64,000 nt of DNA from Bacteroides uniformis. GTDB taxonomy: Bacteria > Bacillota_I > Bacilli_A > RFN20 > CAG-826. The notes under the pieces are model-generated. The model was not told the DNA's origin. It did no database searches and saw nothing but the letters and a program-made list of their open reading frames with translations. Of this stretch, positions 5,141-16,910 are shown piece after piece. Position 1 is the first letter of the stretch. Each line of letters begins with the position of its first letter. Location: contig CAVIBR010000008.1 in the NCBI GenBank assembly GCA_963641445.1, positions 4,282-68,281 on the forward strand, given 5' to 3'. A program made the position numbers and the translations under genes.

Positions 5141-6424
5141 ATGAAGAAATATGTGAGTAGAACTATAGAGCCATATTTTCAAAGAAAATTGAACTCGTCT
5201 GGATGCGTCTTGGTTAGTGGCCCTAAGTTTTGTGGCAAAACGACTATGTGCAAGCATTATGCAAAATCAGTAATTTCTTTGAAAACAAGTAATGCTATTT
5301 TGCTTGCTTCTTCCGATCCTCGTTCAACTTTAATTGGAGAAAGGCCTCATTTGATTGATGAATGGCAGAAAGTTCCTGAAATATGGAATTTAATAAGAGA
5401 CTCTTTGGATGAAGATTATCAATTTGGAAAATATATACTTACAGGAAGTACAACTCCCGTTGATCCATCGAAAATCCAACATTCAGGCGCAGGAAGAATA
5501 TCGTCACTAATATTGAAGCCATTTACTTTGTGGGAATCGAAGGACTCGAGTGGGGAAATATCCTTGAGCGAGCTTTTTAGCAATTTAAAGTTCAAGACAG
5601 TGCATGAAAATGATAATCCAATGACTCTTTCAAAAATTGCTTATCTAGTATGTCGAGGTGGATGGCCTATTTCTCTTGAAGCGGAAGAAGAATACTCTAT
5701 TGATGTTACAACAAATTACTATGATGGATTGTTTAGGATAGAAGACGAGAATGACGAATTCGCCTTATTTTTGAAGAACAAAAATATCGATTTATTAAAA
5801 CTAATACTTAAGTGCTATGCCAGAAATATCTCGACTGAAGCAAAGAAAACTACCATGATAAAGGAGATATTAGATTCAGGAATTCGTTCAAAACTAGATG
5901 AAGACACTTTCGACTCATATGTAAAAATATTAAAAGATTTATATATCGTCTATGATATGCCTGCTTGGAATCTAAATCTTAGGTCCTCGGTTGCAGTAAG
6001 AAGCGCACCAACGCATCATTTTATAGATACCTCGATTGCAACTGCATCTTTAGGCATAACCCCAGATGATTTATTAAACGACATGCGATCATTTGGCTTC
6101 TTTTTTGAGGATATGGCCGTTCGTGATTTATCAGTTTACGCTGAGTCAATTGGCGGAAAACTAAAGCATTATCGAGACAGTATTGGTCAGGAAGTGGATG
6201 CTATTATTGAAACTAAAAATGGCGATTATTGTGCGATTGAAATCAAGATTTATTCTGAAAAAAATATCGAAGATGGAATTGCATCATTAAATAGGTTTGA
6301 AAACAAAGTTGCAAATAGCGGTAATAAGTTGCCAAGATTCAAAATGATTTTGACTAGTCACGGTGGAGCTCGCAAAACGGAAGATGGGATCTATATTGTC
6401 CCTATATCAGTTCTTAAGGATTGA
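5141..6424 (+). CDS. AAA+ ATPase, AAA_14 + DUF4143 family ('ATP-binding protein')
   Basis: Walker A VLVSGPKFCGKTT. The C-terminal DUF4143-like region ends ...YIVPISVLKD. The start has a good RBS. Confidence 0.8.
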   Translation: MKKYVSRTIEPYFQRKLNSSGCVLVSGPKFCGKTTMCKHYAKSVISLKTSNAILLASSDPRSTLIGERPHLIDEWQKVPEIWNLIRDSLDEDYQFGKYILTGSTTPVDPSKIQHSGAGRISSLILKPFTLWESKDSSGEISLSELFSNLKFKTVHENDNPMTLSKIAYLVCRGGWPISLEAEEEYSIDVTTNYYDGLFRIEDENDEFALFLKNKNIDLLKLILKCYARNISTEAKKTTMIKEILDSGIRSKLDEDTFDSYVKILKDLYIVYDMPAWNLNLRSSVAVRSAPTHHFIDTSIATASLGITPDDLLNDMRSFGFFFEDMAVRDLSVYAESIGGKLKHYRDSIGQEVDAIIETKNGDYCAIEIKIYSEKNIEDGIASLNRFENKVANSGNKLPRFKMILTSHGGARKTEDGIYIVPISVLKD

Positions 6425-8638: not shown

Positions 8639-8846
8639 AATTTAAGAATAAATATAGATATCATCGCATTTTATTCATGATTGTTATAAATTAACATTGC
8701 GTTGCCTAAAAAGAAGAAAACATACCTAATTTTATCGTTTGAGAAAAGAAGAATACGCCAAAGTATCCATCAAAAGTGCGCCAAAGTCTCCATTACTATT
8801 GCCTACTTTGGCGTTTTCTAGTAATATATCTCCAGAGAAACTTATT

Positions 8847-10121
8847 ATGAATGACTACAAAAAGAGAATAGTTGATGAGATATTAAAAGAAAAACTAGAA
8901 AGCAAAGCTGCGATTTTGATCGAAGGGCCTAAGTGGTGTGGCAAAACCACCGCGGCAGAACAAGCTTCAAAAAGCGTTCTATACATGACAAATCCAAGGT
9001 ATCTAAAACAAAACCTGATGCTTGCAGATTCTGATCCGACAATCCTTCTAAGAGGTGAAACGCCAAGACTAATTGATGAATGGCAAGTTGCTCCGAAGTT
9101 ATGGGATGCTGTTAGATTTGAAGCCGATCAAAGAAGAAGCTTTGGACAATTTATATTAACTGGTTCATCTCTTCCGCCAGATACTAGTGAAATTATTCAT
9201 ACTGGAACTGGCAGGTTTACTTGGGTTAAGATGCGACCTATGTCATTATTTGAATCAGGTGAGTCAAATGGCGTTATAAGTTTAGAAAAATTATTTGATG
9301 GCGAGACTGACATATATGGAGAATCTCATCTTTCCTTGGATGATGTTGCTTTTTTGACTTGTCGTGGAGGATGGCCTATTTCAACATATCTAAAAGGGAA
9401 AAGCGCTCTTTCGCAAGCTTATGATTATTTTGATGCAGTCGTTAATTCCGATATATCACGAGTTGATAATGTTGCTAGAGACCCAGAAAAAACCAAAAGA
9501 ATCATGGCTTCATATGCTAGATATCAAGGCGCACAAATAGGTGATGATGCAATAGTTAACGATATAAAGACATATGAAGATGAGCAAATAAGCGTTAAAA
9601 CGGTTCGTTCATATATTGATGCGTTGAAGAAAATTTTCGTTATTGAGGATATGAGGGCGTGGAATCCTAATTTACGTAGCAAAACCGCTATCAGAACATC
9701 GGATACAAGGTATTTCATCGATCCTTCGATAGCGGCAGCATCTTTAGGGTTTGGACCTGGCGATTTGCTTAACGATTTAAGAACGTTTGGCTTTATGTTT
9801 GAAACATTGGCTATTAGGGATCTAAGAATATACGCTGAAGCATTGAATGGTGATGTATATCATTTCAGAGACAAGAACGGCCTTGAATGTGATGCGGTCA
9901 TTCATTTAAGAAATGGCAATTATGGTTTAGTGGAAATCAAACTTGGTGGAGATATTCTTATCGAAGAAGGTGTAAAGAATTTGCTCAAGCTTAGAAATAT
10001 TATTGATACAAATAAGATGAAAGAACCATCTTTCTTGATGGTTCTAACTGCCATGGGAGATATTGCTTACAGAAGAGATGATGGTGTTCTTCTTGTACCT
10101 ATAGGTTGTCTTGGCAAATAA
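8847..10121 (+). CDS. AAA+ ATPase, AAA_14 + DUF4143 family (paralog of 5141..6424)
   Basis: Walker A ILIEGPKWCGKTT, with the same architecture as 5141..6424. Start is placed at MNDYKK by alignment of N-termini with the paralog. The ORF-track start at 8739 is probably over-extended. Confidence 0.75.
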   Translation: MNDYKKRIVDEILKEKLESKAAILIEGPKWCGKTTAAEQASKSVLYMTNPRYLKQNLMLADSDPTILLRGETPRLIDEWQVAPKLWDAVRFEADQRRSFGQFILTGSSLPPDTSEIIHTGTGRFTWVKMRPMSLFESGESNGVISLEKLFDGETDIYGESHLSLDDVAFLTCRGGWPISTYLKGKSALSQAYDYFDAVVNSDISRVDNVARDPEKTKRIMASYARYQGAQIGDDAIVNDIKTYEDEQISVKTVRSYIDALKKIFVIEDMRAWNPNLRSKTAIRTSDTRYFIDPSIAAASLGFGPGDLLNDLRTFGFMFETLAIRDLRIYAEALNGDVYHFRDKNGLECDAVIHLRNGNYGLVEIKLGGDILIEEGVKNLLKLRNIIDTNKMKEPSFLMVLTAMGDIAYRRDDGVLLVPIGCLGK

Positions 10122-10245: not shown

Positions 10246-10701
10246 CTAAGTTGTTGATCATTTAATTGAAGAAATGCAAATTTATAGGGTTATTGCGCAT
10301 GATTTTTGGATTTTTGATGTATTCAAAGAAAGATTTGATTGAGTTTTTCGATAGGTTTTAGTGATGTGCTTTGAATATACGTGTCCAGTGTTTCAAATAG
10401 CTTTTCTTGGCTAAATTAGTTGATGAACGAAAAAATGTACATGTCTTTCTTCATAATTAGAGAAGGGCTGGGAGAATGTAAGAATATATTATGAGTTTTT
10501 CAAGATGAATGAAGAAGCTAGCTTTGAATATTCGCTAGCTTTGGGCGGAGAAGTTCCAGGAAAGCTCAATTATTTAGATTTTGATGATATAGAATATGCC
10601 ATAAACGGAACGCCAAAATACCGAACTAATCTTTTTGCATTTCATTAATTGAGATGCATGCGTATTGTTTTAGCATTAGAATTTAAATGCGGAGTATTCA
10701 T

Positions 10702-11012
10702 ATGATAATCAAATGTCCTGAATGTGGAAAAGATGTGTCCTCAGAAGCCAATGCGTGCCCTTTTTGCGGATATCCTATTAATAAGAATAGAAAAAAGAAG
10801 TAAAACACAACGCAAATCATCACGCCGTTTGGAAAGATGTTGTTGGAGTTTCTGTTTCTGGCGGAGCGATGATCACCCTTTGCCCTATCCTAGTTTATTT
10901 TGGCCTTAAGAATCAAAATGATCTTCTTATTTTATCTGGGGCCATAGGCTTCATATTGTTGCTTTTCCCATTTATTATTTGTTTGCTAAATCTTGCCAAA
11001 CGGAATAGATAG
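10702..11012 (+). pseudogene. Zinc-ribbon ORF (33 aa) joined to a 2-TM ORF by a -1 frame change at A-AAA-AAG. Either a frameshifted gene or programmed -1 frameshifting.
   Basis: MIIKCPECGKDVSSEANACPFCGYPINKNRKKK stops 6 nt after the heptamer. The -1 frame continues EVKHNANHHAVWKDVVGVSVSGGAMITLCPILVYFGLKNQNDLLILSGAIGFILLLFPFIICLLNLAKRNR. Confidence 0.35.
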
Positions 11013-11068
11013 AGATTTTGCGAAAAACTGGTGTATCGGTGAAATATGAAAAAATAAAAAGTCGTTTT

Positions 11069-11776
11069 TGCACATGACTGATGATGAAGGCCTTTGCGGT
11101 ATAATCTGCTAAGCCCATGAATGACCAGAAAGAGATTTTCCATGAGGGCCGTTTGGCTCTCAGACTTGGCGGCCTGGCCAAGCGCCCTCCGTGAAAAGCA
11201 GACCGCCAAAATGAAAAATAAAAACGACCCAAGCTGGGCCGGCTCTTTGAAGTCGTATCCAGCAGATGACCAGAACCCGCTTTCGCCATCAGTGGAGCTC
11301 GTGGACAACACAATCTCCGAATGGTATCGCAAAAAGTGTGGTCGCCGAATGACTATCCAAGCCATCGAAGCTAAGAACGTTCTCGCTTTTCGAGGGCCAC
11401 ATAGCCCTAGGCTCAACGCTCGTCCACGACGGCGACAACTCTCATTCCCTGCTGATAGAGAAACTCGGGTTGAAGAGCGAGGCGCACAAGACGTCGGAGA
11501 CGGATGGAATGCCCGATTCGGAGAACCAGATGAGGGCCGTAAACGAGATCCACGCATTGCTGAAATCCTTCCTCCACAGCCACAGCAACTTCAAAAGAAG
11601 GGACCTTCAGGGGGTGGCTGAACCTGTTTTGGGTGATTTGGTCTGAGCCGGCGAACAGGATGGAGAAGATCGCCGAGTTCATAGAGATGGCGATATCGAA
11701 ACGGAAACGCATCAAGTATAGGGATGTCTTCCACAAAAAGCGCATAATTTAGGATATTTTCATCAGTCATGTGCAA
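11069..11776. mobile_element. About 710 bp GC-rich (roughly 50% GC, host about 32%) segment bounded by 16 bp perfect terminal inverted repeats (tgcacatgactgatga); MITE-like or a foreign insertion
   Basis: The left repeat is ttgcacatgactgatgatgaa at 11068-11088. The right repeat is ttcatcagtcatgtgcaa at 11759-11776. There is an abrupt composition shift. The internal ORFs are low-complexity and not convincing. Confidence 0.4.
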
Positions 11777-11893
11777 AAAATGACTTTTTTCAAAATCATG
11801 GTGAATATCATTTTTAGAACGTATTTTTGAGTCAGTTTTGCTATCAAAATAGCATATAATATTTGAGATGTGCGTAATTTCGGAGGTTGAAGA

Positions 11894-14800
11894 ATGCCAA
11901 AAGCCTTTAAATTTAAAGATGCTAACAAGCAATTGAAGTTTTATAAGAAACTTTTCTCTGATATGGATTTCGCCGAACGTTTTCCGATTTCTTGCGAAAA
12001 TGATCTTTTAAAACAGTTGAAATTATTGCAAACTAGCGGCTTTTTCGATGAATTAGTTGAAAAAGGAGTGAATGGAGGAGAATTTGATTTCAACCAGCCA
12101 AAACTAATGAGTTTCATTTCTAACGTTTATCGTCTTAAAGAAGGAACTAACTACGCTAAAAAATGCAAAGAAATACACGAATCGATGATTAAAGAAATGG
12201 TTCCTCCGATGACCGCATTATCGGATTCGTCTTTCATTTTACTTTGGATATTTTCTTCGAAAGCAGAGAAAAAAGCCGCTGAAGAAGCCTATAACAAACT
12301 AGTGAACAGCAGAAACAGCGATCTAGTTTTATCTGCAGTACACATTTTAGAGACAATTGATGGCTTGCCAAAAAGCAGTCTTGAAACCATAAAAAACGAT
12401 TATTCTACAAATAGGATAAGGTATAAACAGATCCTAAAGAAAATGAATCCTGATGTTTTCACCGAAGGTGGGAATGTTAAGATTTTCGAGGAATATATAA
12501 AAGAGCATGAAACGTTAATTGTGGAGCTAAATGAAATCGGCGCTTCCATTCAGCAAAGCAAAAAAGAAATCAAAGATTCTTTAGAGAGATTGCTTGCGGA
12601 AAAATTGATAAGCTCATTAAAGGCGATACCGGTAGAAGAACTTGCCAAGTCAAAAACGGGCATAAAGGTTAAATATTTAAAAGATGCAGGATATCATGAT
12701 TTAGCCGATATTCAACTTGCTTCTGGAGCGCAATTAGCATCCGTTTATGGCATTAGTCAAGATAAGGCGTATACAATCAAGAATGTTTGTAACGAATATT
12801 ACAAGCAAATACTTAAAGTTACCAAAATTAAGTTAAGCACCGATGACAAATCAAAAGCAGCCACTAGAGTTGTTAAGTCAATCTACGTTTATGCGAAGAA
12901 ACTGGAATTTTCAAAAAGAATAGGCAATCTTAATGCTGAATATGGCGATTCATTGAACCAAGCGTTTGCTAAATTAAAGAAAATTGGCAATGGTGTTATT
13001 TGGCCTTTTTTAAGCAAACTTGAAATTGGTGAAACTAGATCTGCTTTTGAATACGTTAAAAAAACTTTGTCAACAAATTACGAACCAAGTGCGAAGAAAG
13101 TATTGCAGGAATTTAGAAAAAATAAATCGAATTCAGACAATGCTTGGGATGATTTTGCCGTTAATTCTATTAACTATTACAACATTATTGAGGAAATATG
13201 TCCTGGATTGCTAGGAAATGGTGATTCTTTGTATGGGTTGCCGGAAGACCTTGCAAGGCAAATACAAGATGAATGCTATTTTCCTGATGGATTATTGTGC
13301 ACATTAAGAAAATACCAGGAATGGGGCGTTAAATATATTCTTCACCAAGAAAAAGTCCTTTTAGGCGATGAAATGGGTTTAGGAAAAACCATTCAAGCGA
13401 TTGCGACTATGGTTTCTTTAAAAAACACTGGTGGCACGCATTTTCTTGTTATTTGTCCAACTTCGGTTGTAACGAATTGGTGCAGGGAAATAATCAAGCA
13501 TAGTAAATTAAGAGTTACAAAAATACACGGAACAGGTAAAGAAACTGCTTTTAATTCGTGGTTGAAAACCGGTGGTGTAGCAGTTACAAATTACGAATCA
13601 ATTCCATATATAAATCTAAGAGAAAACTACAAAATCTCTTTGCTAGTCGTTGATGAGGCGCACTATATCAAAAACCCAAACGCGAGAAGAAGCGTTAATG
13701 CACGTTTATTAGCCTCTCATAGCGATAGACTTTTGTTTATGACTGGAACGGCTTTGGAAAACAGAGTTGATGAAATGATATCTTTGATTAGTGTCTTAAG
13801 ACCATCAATCGCCGATCAAATCAAACATCTAGCTTTCATGTCCTCGGCCCCGGAATTCAGAGAGAAAATAGCGCCTGTCTACTATAGGAGAAAACGTGAA
13901 GATGTTTTGACCGAATTGCCTGACAAAATAGAAAGTAAAGAATGGTGTGTTCTGAATCCTGAAGAAGAAACAATTTACGAAGAATCCATTCTTAGCAAAA
14001 ATTTTCAAAAAGCGAGAAGAATATCTTGGGATGTTGATGATTTAAATAAATCTAGCAAGGCTCAAAGGTTAAAGGAAATCGTTGATGAAGCGGAAGCTGA
14101 AGACCGCAAGATTTTGGTTTTTTCTTATTTTTTGGATACAATAAACAAAATCCATGATTTTCTTGATGGCAAATGCTTAAACCCGATTAACGGTTCAATT
14201 AATGTTAATAGAAGACAAGAAATTATCGATGAATTTGATAAGGCTCCGGCCGGAACGGTTTTGCTTGCACAAATTAATTCAGGCGGAACTGGTTTGAATA
14301 TACAATCTGCATCGGTTGTTGTAATTTGCGAGCCTCAATTTAAGCCGTCTGTTGAAAACCAAGCCATTTCTAGGGCTTATAGAATGGGACAATCCAGAAA
14401 AGTTCTCGTTTATAGATTGTTGTGTGAAAATTCTATCGATGAGAAACTTGTGGATATTCTTGAGGAAAAACAACAGCTTTTTGATGCGTTTGCGGATAAG
14501 TCCGTTGCTGCGGAAAAGACTTTTGAAATTGATGAAAAGACTTTTGGAGATGTTATTAAAGAAGAAATTGATAGAATCAACAAAAAACGTGAAATTCCTT
14601 CTGAATCAAGCCTAGATGTTCCTCCGAAAATCGAAAATCATGATAAGCCAACCGATTTAAAAGATTTTGACTATGAGCCAATCAATGTTACAAAAAACGG
14701 TAAAGAATATTATAAATCAATAATGAAGATGTCCTATGATGAATTGGTTCAATTTTTAATCAATAAGTATGGTCCAGCCAAATACGATTACTACACCAAT

Positions 14801-15292
14801 GAATATTGCACGACTAAAAACAAGAATGTTACTCGAACAAAAGAAGGACTTTACTGCCATCATATAGATGAAGATAAAGCTATTATGCTTTCAAATGATG
14901 CTTTCGCCAGGGCGAATCCTTTTGAATACCAAAAAGCGAATAGATTAGTTTATTGTAATTTTTTGGAACACTTTCTCTTACATATATTAATTGCGGAAGA
15001 GCCTAAAAAAGCTAATGCTAACAAAAAAGAACTTCAAGGAATCGGTGGAGCAGTTAGCTTTATTTGCAAACAACTTAATGATTTGTACAATGGCTACGAA
15101 TTTAAACAAGGGTGGATGAATAACACGACATCTATTGTAAAAAACGACTATGAAAGTTACATAATGATGCTAAAAAGGCTTTGGAACGATATTAAAAACG
15201 ATGAACTTTTATCGTTTATGATAAGAAAAAAAGAGTTGGCGATGGGCTGGGATGGCAGAATTTATCCAAAAGTATTAGAAGAACTAAAATAG
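11894..15292 (+). CDS. SNF2-family (Swi2/Snf2) helicase, 1132 aa, with a roughly 450 aa N-terminal domain (HhH-like) and a roughly 250 aa C-terminal extension
   Basis: Motif I LGDEMGLGKTIQAIA, motif II DEAHYIKN, MTGTALENR, and motif VI QAISRAYRMGQSRKVLVYRL. Confidence 0.85.
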   Translation: MPKAFKFKDANKQLKFYKKLFSDMDFAERFPISCENDLLKQLKLLQTSGFFDELVEKGVNGGEFDFNQPKLMSFISNVYRLKEGTNYAKKCKEIHESMIKEMVPPMTALSDSSFILLWIFSSKAEKKAAEEAYNKLVNSRNSDLVLSAVHILETIDGLPKSSLETIKNDYSTNRIRYKQILKKMNPDVFTEGGNVKIFEEYIKEHETLIVELNEIGASIQQSKKEIKDSLERLLAEKLISSLKAIPVEELAKSKTGIKVKYLKDAGYHDLADIQLASGAQLASVYGISQDKAYTIKNVCNEYYKQILKVTKIKLSTDDKSKAATRVVKSIYVYAKKLEFSKRIGNLNAEYGDSLNQAFAKLKKIGNGVIWPFLSKLEIGETRSAFEYVKKTLSTNYEPSAKKVLQEFRKNKSNSDNAWDDFAVNSINYYNIIEEICPGLLGNGDSLYGLPEDLARQIQDECYFPDGLLCTLRKYQEWGVKYILHQEKVLLGDEMGLGKTIQAIATMVSLKNTGGTHFLVICPTSVVTNWCREIIKHSKLRVTKIHGTGKETAFNSWLKTGGVAVTNYESIPYINLRENYKISLLVVDEAHYIKNPNARRSVNARLLASHSDRLLFMTGTALENRVDEMISLISVLRPSIADQIKHLAFMSSAPEFREKIAPVYYRRKREDVLTELPDKIESKEWCVLNPEEETIYEESILSKNFQKARRISWDVDDLNKSSKAQRLKEIVDEAEAEDRKILVFSYFLDTINKIHDFLDGKCLNPINGSINVNRRQEIIDEFDKAPAGTVLLAQINSGGTGLNIQSASVVVICEPQFKPSVENQAISRAYRMGQSRKVLVYRLLCENSIDEKLVDILEEKQQLFDAFADKSVAAEKTFEIDEKTFGDVIKEEIDRINKKREIPSESSLDVPPKIENHDKPTDLKDFDYEPINVTKNGKEYYKSIMKMSYDELVQFLINKYGPAKYDYYTNEYCTTKNKNVTRTKEGLYCHHIDEDKAIMLSNDAFARANPFEYQKANRLVYCNFLEHFLLHILIAEEPKKANANKKELQGIGGAVSFICKQLNDLYNGYEFKQGWMNNTTSIVKNDYESYIMMLKRLWNDIKNDELLSFMIRKKELAMGWDGRIYPKVLEELK

Positions 15293-15348
15293 CATTCACC
15301 TGAACACATTCAAAAACATGCTATAATGAGCATATATTTTATAAACTT

Positions 15349-16335
15349 ATGCAACCTAATGAGACAATGACTCCATCATATATCGATGATTGGTTGACAA
15401 TCATTGAACAAATGAACAATGACAATACGTATAAATTAGCTTGGGGAAGAGCGGTTATTGAATGTATTTGTCTTGATCGTTCTTATGAAGAAAATGGTGA
15501 GACCATTGTCGCATTCGATGAAATTGCCAGGTGCATGATTAGATATTATTGGAATCAGTTGTTTTTCTTCAAACTCAAACAATCTCCATATAAAGACAAA
15601 GAACCAATCATTTGCTCTGATGTTAATAAGCTAATTGATGAATGGAAAACGAATAAAAACAGCGTCATTCCTACCTGGTACGACGAAAAAGATGTTAGGA
15701 AAAATAATGAAGAATTGTTTGATAAGGTTCTAAAACACGTCTCTAAGACTTTGCATGAGAATGTTAGCTGGAGATTTAAGAATGTCCCCGGCAAAACATT
15801 AGAGATTTATAACTATGATAAGGCTAATTCCAGACTTATTTTCTCTAACGACGACGCGTCTTTGCTTAAGGACGCATACGGAATAATCTTATCGAAGTTA
15901 TTGAATTACAAATGGACTCAATTGCTAGAAAAGTTCAACTATCAGCCAAAGATTGCTTTGAAGGTTTCAGGCATTTCCGATAACAAAATTAGAAGAAACA
16001 ACCTTTCTAAATATAAGGAAGAATTGCTTAAGGAATATAATGGCAAAGCAATTGATTTCTATACGGGAAAAGAACTAGAAATGAACGATATTTCCATTGA
16101 TCATGTCATTCCATGGAGTTTTATGTATTCCGATGACATCTGGAATTTGGTTATCACATCAAAATCGAATAATTCTTCAAAGAGTAATTCCATACCTAGC
16201 GAGAATGTTATTGAGAGATTGAAGGAAAGAAATAACAAATTGAAAGACATTGTGAGCGGTTCATTCAAGTTAGATATCGAAGAAGCACTTAAAAACAATT
16301 ATATCGATAAGTTCTATTACGAATGTAGGTTATAG
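15349..16335 (+). CDS. HNH-endonuclease-domain protein with an N-terminal domain of unknown function
   Basis: C-terminal ISIDHVIPWSF...DIWNLVITSKSNNSSKSN fits the HNH spacing (DH...N...N). It is 56 bp downstream of the SNF2 gene. Confidence 0.55.
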   Translation: MQPNETMTPSYIDDWLTIIEQMNNDNTYKLAWGRAVIECICLDRSYEENGETIVAFDEIARCMIRYYWNQLFFFKLKQSPYKDKEPIICSDVNKLIDEWKTNKNSVIPTWYDEKDVRKNNEELFDKVLKHVSKTLHENVSWRFKNVPGKTLEIYNYDKANSRLIFSNDDASLLKDAYGIILSKLLNYKWTQLLEKFNYQPKIALKVSGISDNKIRRNNLSKYKEELLKEYNGKAIDFYTGKELEMNDISIDHVIPWSFMYSDDIWNLVITSKSNNSSKSNSIPSENVIERLKERNNKLKDIVSGSFKLDIEEALKNNYIDKFYYECRL

Positions 16336-16337
16336 AT

Positions 16338-16910
16338 ATGAGCGATTATTATAATGAGAACGCAAAATCTTTCATCGAAGACACGTTTAATTGCGACATG
16401 TCTGGCTTATATGAGTTTTTTGAACGATATTTGAATGATGCAAAAACTATCTTGGATTTAGGCTTTGGAAGTGCGAGGGATTCCCTATATTTCCAAAATA
16501 AAGGCTATACCGTGTATTCAATCGATCCGGCCTTAGAGTTTTGTGAAAATGCAAAAAAGCTAGGCCTTAAGCATGTATTTCAGATGAACGCTCAAGAAAT
16601 GAATTTTGAAAACCTTTTTGACGGAATCTGGGCTTGCGCGTCTTTGTTACACGTTCCATCAAATGAATTGAATGAAGTATTCAAGAAATGTAGTAATTCC
16701 TTAAAGGATAGTGGGACCATGTATGTTTCTTTTAAATATGGGGATTTTGAAGGAACAAGAAACGGAAGATTCTTTTTGGACTTGAATGAAGAATCCATAA
16801 AGAAGTATTTGGAAAATACAGGTCTATCGATTGTAGATACGATGATTACTAATGATGTAAGAGAAGATAAGTCTACAAAATGGTTGAATGTTATTTTGAA
16901 GAAAAAGTAA
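16338..16910 (+). CDS. Small class I SAM-dependent methyltransferase (Methyltransf_11/TehB-like)
   Basis: Motif I ILDLGFGSARDSLYF and post-I IWACASLLHV. It starts 2 bp after the HNH gene. Confidence 0.7.
   Translation: MSDYYNENAKSFIEDTFNCDMSGLYEFFERYLNDAKTILDLGFGSARDSLYFQNKGYTVYSIDPALEFCENAKKLGLKHVFQMNAQEMNFENLFDGIWACASLLHVPSNELNEVFKKCSNSLKDSGTMYVSFKYGDFEGTRNGRFFLDLNEESIKKYLENTGLSIVDTMITNDVREDKSTKWLNVILKKK

Follow-up and report, generated by a model that had tools for sequence, protein, structure and literature searches.

The GC-rich segment at positions 11059 to 11786 of the window (the whole 64-kb stretch of DNA that was analysed) is, with high probability, the dead and fixed remnant of a single-gene DDE insertion sequence (IS) that belongs to a divergent branch of the IS1595 family, apparently one without a name. 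The element lies on the + strand and is 728 bp long. It was delimited by end-to-end alignment with the ~1.22-kb full-length copies on contigs L002, L003 and L022, with which it aligns throughout except for a 482-bp gap; relative to those copies it is internally deleted and pseudogenised. The ends were fixed by analogy with L022, in which an 8-bp duplication abuts AAGTCC...GGACTT, and A/T runs leave an ambiguity of no more than 3 nt per side (widest bounds, 11056 to 11789). The original prediction of foreign or mobile-element-derived DNA between terminal inverted repeats is borne out both by the homology to IS1595-family elements and by the repeats.

The sequence TGCACATGACTGATGA is found at 11069–11084 on the + strand and its reverse complement at 11760–11775. 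When up to two mismatches were allowed, this sequence had two matches in the 64-kb window, as compared with 0.10 expected, and none of 100 shuffled sequences reached two. The perfect repeats that had been reported earlier are therefore real, but the right-hand copy ends at 11775 rather than 11776, and the perfect repeat is 20 nt rather than 16 nt in length (11065–11084 and 11760–11779). With one mismatch and one T-run indel (~25/27 positions matching), the repeat extends over approximately 26–27 nt, out to 11059 and 11786. The left terminal inverted repeat (IRL, 11059–11084, + strand, perfect core 11065–11084) reads AAGTCGTTTTTGCACATGACTGATGA, an end sequence common to L002, L003, L022 and L023. 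The right repeat (IRR, 11760–11786, − strand, perfect core 11760–11779) has the reverse complement AAGTCATTTTTTGCACATGACTGATGA and differs from IRL by a G-to-A change, where a related strain (L017) has G, and by T6 in place of T5. Terminal inverted repeats, a feature of the IS1595 family, are thus present at both ends of the element, and these ends are common to four other members of the family.

The sharp step in G+C content predicted at the repeats was confirmed. The 5-kb flanks have G+C contents of 33.5% and 34.3%, against 50.5% for the element as a whole and 51.7% for its interior, and in 200-nt windows the value changes abruptly across the element, from 0.35 to 0.52–0.545 and then to 0.325. 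The elements of this family have G+C contents of 55–59%, in host flanks that range from ~33% to 52%, and the jump in composition arises because the element itself is GC-rich.

Six-frame translation revealed three + strand stretches resembling the end of a DDE transposase. These were resolved as three pieces of an IS1595-family transposase, situated in three different frames of the + strand and corresponding to residues 1 to ~40, ~204 to 295, and 295 to 338 of 340-aa relatives. The first piece (11211–11330, frame 3; tblastn) comprises the start codon and residues 1 to ~40 (MKNKNDPSWAGSLKSYP...SEWY), and residues 1–42 of protein P0004 matched it with 66.7% identity over 11211–11336. The second (11338–11613, frame 1; tblastn and the NCBIfam model NF033547) comprises residues ~204–295, with the HDGDNSHS motif and the ENxM...VNxxHALLKxFL region, and is 68.5% identical to residues 204–295 of P0003 (tblastn); it contains an in-frame TGA at 11350–11352 in place of a conserved Trp codon, TGG. 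The third (11612–11752, frame 2; tblastn) comprises residues 295–338 (GWLNLFWVIWSEPANRMEKIAEFIEMAISKRKRIKYRDVF) and the stop codon TAG at 11750–11752, and residues 295–338 of P0003 matched it at 11612–11743 with 81.8% identity.

Two of the lesions in the transposase gene are situated at the boundaries between these pieces. The junction of the internal deletion is situated at 11327–11340 (+ strand; gap columns 304–785 of the MAFFT alignment, A3), where blastn homology to the full-length copies ends at 11326/11327 and restarts at 11339/11341. The deletion removed ~482 bp, approximately residues 45–200, so that the CxxC...CxxC zinc ribbon and an N-terminal part of the DDE domain with its DE(T/A) motif are gone. 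Between the second and third pieces, a GGGGG run at 11610–11614 (+ strand; A3 columns ~1055–1060, and alignment A2) contains one base more than the full-length elements and constitutes a +1 frameshift, which is also present in L001. In all, ~540 bp of the 728-bp element aligns to transposase coding sequence, and ~60% of the transposase gene is left. The element is non-autonomous, because it cannot encode a transposase of its own. It had been stated in the original prediction that no reading frame resembled a real protein and that the terminal repeats enclosed no transposase; both statements are contradicted by the three clear transposase remnants, which together make up a deleted and frameshifted IS1595-family pseudogene. 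Elsewhere in the 64-kb window, no tblastn match to the transposase was found apart from a weak one to its zinc-ribbon segment at 46010–46084 (+ strand, E values of 0.03–0.1), which is probably due to an unrelated zinc-ribbon protein.

The assignment to the IS1595 family was examined with domain models and with full-length relatives. The reconstructed C-terminal part of the transposase matched NF033547 (transpos_IS1595) with an E value of 8e-5 and 22.5 bits; the match covers positions 128–212 of the 215 in the model, because only the surviving part of the protein can match. Pfam returned nothing significant for the reconstructed fragments, and the remnant was caught by the NCBIfam IS1595 model alone. 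In a collection of 5.8 billion proteins, 26 proteins were matched, with E values down to 8e-71 and most with lengths of 328–363 aa. They are 61–73% identical to the remnant over the retained parts, and their precomputed domains are PF12762 (DDE_Tnp_IS1595) and PF03811 (zinc ribbon). The full-length proteins P0002–P0005 scored 63–71 bits against NF033547 (E values of 1e-19 to 3e-17, positions 2–213), for which the curated cut-off is 75 bits, and full-length relatives scored 19–26 bits against Pfam PF12762, for which the cut-off is 27. Against NF050000, the IS1/IS1595 zinc-binding domain, they scored 40–46 bits and exceeded the cut-off of 28. The IS1/IS1595-type zinc-binding domain is accordingly found in the full-length relatives; in the window copy it falls inside the 482-bp deletion and is absent. 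The nearest annotated relatives, identified by tblastn against plasmids, are IS1595 elements that include ISSag10 and ISOar1, with 25–31% identity. Since the relatives score just under the cut-offs of the DDE models and have only 25–31% identity to named members, the homology to IS1595-type DDE transposases places the parent element in a divergent branch of that family. The family was defined by Siguier, Gagnevin and Chandler (2009), as cited in PMC12561309, where A/T-rich 8-bp direct repeats are given for its elements.

The full-length copies used for comparison were taken from contigs encoding four full-length proteins. In L002 (421–1637), L003 and L022 (2382–3600), in which the element is ~1.22 kb long, the termini are AAGTCG/C...GCACATGACTGAT, a TATAAT is situated ~15 nt inside the left repeat, and a leader of ~105 nt precedes a single open reading frame. 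The copy in L022 has TTCAAAAA on both sides of AAGTCC...GGACTT, a perfect duplication of 8 bp. Only in L022 could the junctions be read plainly, and L002 showed no clear-cut duplication. A few bases beyond each end of the IS in L022 (2350–2400 and 3590–3640), a direct repeat of 16 nt, GTAAATCGGCAAAAGT, was also observed, and its target is therefore a short, tandem-like repeat region. Other members of the family have decayed independently: P0024 has a different internal deletion, P0017 is a C-terminal fragment, and P0026 carries a frameshift.

The element was located in four contigs from three metagenome samples, in every case at the same locus; a further variant, P0151, was not placed. L001 (Logan SRR13434598) agrees with the window copy in its left junction, its deletion and its +1 frameshift. 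L017 (SRR19415659), whose SNF2 protein is 98% identical to that in the window, begins at window position 11761, and L031 (SRR19415678) and L032 (SRR19415659) both end at 11094. The element ends are thus at the same site in L017, L031 and L032, and the deleted interior was confirmed in L001 only. The Logan contigs of SRR19415659 and SRR19415678 break ~30–36 nt inside each end of the element; at k=31, an inverted repeat of only 20 nt would not account for these breaks, and further IS copies or variants may be present in those two samples.

Comparison of the window copy with that in L001 provides a measure of constraint. The two are 93.9% identical in the element and 93.1% identical in the upstream flank. 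When codons were compared in the native frames of the transposase, 9 non-synonymous and 3 synonymous changes were counted in one, and 6 and 1, respectively, in another; the non-synonymous changes include a conversion of HDGDNSH to HNGDNSH in L001. Because the element diverges at the same rate as its flanks and the changes are mostly non-synonymous, it appears to be a neutral relic.

An A/T-rich target-site duplication of 8 bp (7–9 bp), which is present in L022, was not found at the ends of the window copy. Its flanks are AAAATAAA and TTTTCAAA; all registers of the A/T runs were tried, and the best gave ~6/8 matches. The absence of the duplication from one old copy is compatible with later change in a flank or with recombination between copies; it may have been lost through rearrangement or change of a flank, or through recombination between two copies or insertions. 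Empty sites were sought among relatives. Exact look-ups of the SNF2 protein, the 460-aa AAA_14 protein and the 47-aa open reading frame yielded none; L017, L031 and L032 all stop just inside the ends of the element; and the next SNF2 relatives (at most 68% identical), as well as L033, with its 67%-identical relative of the upstream gene, are situated in unrelated contexts. Because no empty site was found in any relative, the insertion is deduced from homology rather than seen directly.

The following history would account for these observations. An element of ~1.22 kb and 55–59% G+C would have inserted into the A/T-rich spacer between a gene for a zinc-ribbon/membrane protein and that for the SNF2 helicase. 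Between terminal repeats of ~26 nt it would have carried a TATAAT promoter of its own and, behind a structured leader, a single gene encoding a 340-aa transposase, in which a zinc ribbon at the N-terminus was combined with a DDE domain of the IS1595 type. Deletion of 482 bp from the central part of this gene would have followed, together with acquisition of the +1 frameshift and the stop codon, after which no transposase could be made. Since that time it would have been inherited vertically, subject to neutral drift.

Two features upstream of the remnant gene are of potential regulatory significance. All six of the aligned family members have the TATAAT at 11100–11105 (+ strand; alignments A4 and A3) without change, and from this conservation and its position it is inferred to be the −10 hexamer of a promoter belonging to the element. 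A simple sigma-70 scan did not call this hexamer, because it has no good −35 sequence. The transposase mRNA leader (11106–11210, + strand) is predicted by RNAalifold to form a long hairpin. Equivalent leaders are found at L002 470–580, L003 47–156, L022 2430–2540 and L023 2391–2500, with conservation of the nucleotide sequence throughout the family. Of the 31 pairs that RNAalifold predicted from six sequences, five have compensatory changes. A second possible stem, TTGGCGGyyTG / CArrCCGCCAA, which terminates 3–4 nt before the ATG, shows covariation when L002 and L003 are compared. The leader contains no obvious Shine-Dalgarno sequence. The predicted hairpin is a property of the IS family as a whole, probably one that functions in translational control, and it is partly degraded in the window copy, where mismatches have been acquired.

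As had been predicted, the element is intergenic and precedes the SNF2 gene, whose ATG (11894) is 107 nt downstream of the element's right end. PADLOC classes the SNF2 protein as DpdE/DrmD-like; the protein also has a long N-terminal extension. Genes for an HNH protein and a small methyltransferase are situated downstream of it, and genes for two AAA_14/DUF4143 (PDC-S01) paralogs upstream. The window segments 5141–6424, 8739–10121 and 11894–16910 together contain a gene set resembling that of a defence island: the two PDC-S01-type AAA_14/DUF4143 paralogs, an ASCH protein, the SNF2 helicase, an HNH_4 nuclease and a small SAM methyltransferase. Beyond the defence-type genes is an AgrC/LytTR-type two-component pair. 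IS debris is common in such settings.

Other differences among the related contigs were observed on the upstream side of the element. The gene for the zinc-ribbon/membrane protein (10687–11012) is split in the window into open reading frames of 38 aa and 47 aa in different frames, because the A-run at 10791–10796 contains six A residues. In L001, L031 and L032 there are seven, and the gene, which encodes the 103-aa protein P0147, is intact; the six-A run may reflect a sequencing error in a homopolymer, recent pseudogene formation or phase variation. By comparison with window positions 10348–10511, L031 (3084–5103) and L032 (1427–3446) have ~1.86 kb of additional DNA between the AAA_14/DUF4143 gene and the zinc-ribbon gene. 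This DNA, absent from the window, contains genes for proteins of 441 aa and 199 aa with no Pfam match on record. In L033, three copies of GTGCATATTTTTGGAC, ~40 nt apart, were found at 700–880, downstream of the 67%-identical homologue of the zinc-ribbon gene.

The location of the element raises the question of whether it affects the expression of the SNF2 gene, and such an effect is possible. A terminator scan found no terminator-like site on the + strand between the element's TATAAT and the start of the SNF2 gene, so read-through transcription from the element into that gene is conceivable. A hybrid outward promoter at the right end was considered and rejected, as no acceptable −35/−10 pair was found by eye or by scan. 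It might be supposed, further, that the insert has been exapted, such that the relic promoter and leader, or the displacement of the original upstream sequence, now drives or modulates expression of the DpdE/DrmD-like SNF2 protein. Exaptation would explain the retention of the element in all of the related strains seen, its ends being present in three of the three related samples recovered, and it would be consistent with the common orientation of the remnant gene and the SNF2 gene, with the persistence of the family-invariant TATAAT at 11100–11105 and with the lack of a + strand terminator-like site before the SNF2 start. The strains that retain the element are only ~2–7% diverged, however, so that common descent accounts for its presence in all of them; the element and its flanks evolve equally fast, and the leader hairpin of the window copy contains mismatches. 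A separate TATAAT, at 11855–11860, is situated between the element and the SNF2 start, nearer the gene, which therefore need not depend on the insert. Taken together, these data make exaptation unlikely.

A broader proposal would hold that the relic is still active in some way: co-option of the retained promoter and of the covarying leader hairpin would have placed SNF2 under their control, or the deleted form would still be mobilised in trans and spread within the defence islands of an uncultured low-GC Bacillota lineage. Separately, the parent would represent an undescribed IS1595 clade with a structured leader for translational control. The proposal as a whole is considered decidedly unlikely.

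The segment had originally been described as resembling a miniature inverted-repeat transposable element (MITE), and the possibility was considered that the 728-bp form is still mobile, propagated in trans by a full-length copy elsewhere and present in several copies. The description holds to the extent that the element is non-autonomous and bounded by terminal repeats; it fails in that a transposase remnant is situated inside and no second copy was found. Continued mobility might be suggested by the nearly intact terminal repeats (20/20 perfect, ~25/27 overall), by other Bacillota-type metagenome assemblies in which full-length relatives share these ends, and by the contigs from two Logan samples that stop at 11094 and 11761, as repeats or variants can cause such stops. 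The two changes in ~53 nt of the repeats are, however, about what neutral drift would be expected to produce.

The searches for additional copies also argue against a mobile form. There is no second copy in the 64-kb window. An exact scan with a 19-mer of the terminal repeat in 185,579 GTDB species genomes identified 13 loci, of which only L016 (a 50–80-nt end fragment) and L004 (a 27–30-nt end-like match) showed any further similarity, the rest being chance matches. Scanning of the JGI metagenomes for the deletion junction produced two loci, both due to chance, and a 17-mer scan of IMG/VR produced four, all due to chance. No match to the element was obtained by blastn in PLSDB plasmids or INPHARED phages. 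The occurrences that could be located (L001, L017 and L031/L032) share one locus and its flanks, with the deleted interior seen in L001 only and P0151 unplaced. The checks originally proposed, for other copies, for empty sites and for target-site duplications, thus yielded none of the three: copies at different loci were not found in the window, GTDB, JGI, IMG/VR, plasmids or phages, empty sites were not found in relatives, and no intact duplication was found at the window ends. The MITE label is unsupported for this reason. The terminal repeats of a MITE are present without the target duplication, and at 728 bp, of which ~540 bp aligns to a transposase, the element is neither small nor free of coding remnants. 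A form that is still mobile is consequently regarded as highly improbable.

A third alternative is that the element encodes a small functional protein, e.g. a truncated transposase N-terminus that acts as a regulator. A chimeric open frame at 11121–11621 (+ strand) would encode 166 aa in full; with a start at the ATG at 11142 the product would be 159 aa, and with one at 11211 it would be 136 aa. The frame consists of read-through of the leader, 40 genuine N-terminal residues of the transposase, and ~97 residues from the DDE region read out of frame. The Arg-, Pro- and Gly-rich frames that were initially noted as being of low complexity arise where a GC-rich gene is read in the wrong frame beyond the deletion and the frameshift. 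The chimeric frame is uninterrupted in both the window and L001, its first 40 residues are those of an authentic transposase N-terminus, and it has been called as a protein in public records (P0152, P0025 and P0151). The 159-aa sequence is identical to P0152 (NCBI and Logan; on a contig of 70,892 nt), and P0151, on a 20.9-kb Logan contig, is a third variant of the 136-aa open reading frame. On the other side, ~97 of the 136 residues derive from the DDE-domain region out of frame, the zinc ribbon that could bind DNA was lost in the deletion, and no Pfam or NCBIfam family matches the chimeric frame. In comparison with L001, the out-of-frame tail shows 9 non-synonymous and 4 synonymous changes and the N-terminal portion 3 and 2, respectively, and on this substitution pattern a functional protein of 136–166 aa was rejected; there is very little likelihood that one is produced. 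The structured RNA that was originally offered as an alternative, i.e. a non-coding RNA gene or other RNA element, can be dismissed with near certainty: high G+C content in an AT-rich genome and a long-range inverted repeat are superficially RNA-like, but a permissive Rfam search of both strands over 10500–12500 revealed no match at E values up to 1, the minimum free energy of folding of the interior is not above background in stability (z-score +0.51, with 14 of 20 shuffled sequences folding at least as well), and homology to a protein-coding IS accounts fully for the sequence. The transposase leader is the one part of the element with an RNA-like character.

The preferred reading is thus that of an IS relic, and it serves to explain both the GC-rich island and the 159-aa 'hypothetical protein' P0152 as a transposase pseudogene, which the annotation should state. 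The relic would mark a past IS insertion in an accessory region of defence type (SNF2 helicase, HNH nuclease, methyltransferase and AAA_14/DUF4143 paralogs), and it points to a divergent IS1595-family clade, with a conserved leader structure, in uncultured Bacillota. The current understanding of insertion sequences is not, of course, challenged by these results; the find is routine rather than surprising.

It is instructive to compare the element with known systems. Like ISSag10, ISOar1, ISApl4 and other IS1595 elements, its full-length relatives are ~1.2 kb long, with a single open reading frame for a transposase that combines an N-terminal zinc-binding domain and an IS1595-type DDE domain. 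They share with that family short terminal inverted repeats and, in L022, an A/T-rich 8-bp duplication. In contrast to those elements, the relatives form a clade that is 25–31% identical to named members and just under the curated DDE cut-offs, their terminal sequence, AAGTCGTTTTTTGCACATGACTGAT, was matched to no named element, and the window copy lacks 482 bp, is frameshifted, contains a stop codon and has no target duplication. As in MITEs, the element is bounded by terminal inverted repeats, makes no transposase and is derived from an IS by internal deletion. Bacterial MITEs are usually under ~300–500 bp, and the element differs from them in its size of 728 bp, in its retention of ~60% of the transposase gene, and in that no second copy or target duplication was found. 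No essential difference separates the element from IS 'scars', or delta-IS pseudogenes: like them, it has near-intact ends and a disrupted transposase gene, and is fixed at one locus, where it decays neutrally. The window copy retains both of its ends, and its mobilisation in trans would therefore be possible in principle.
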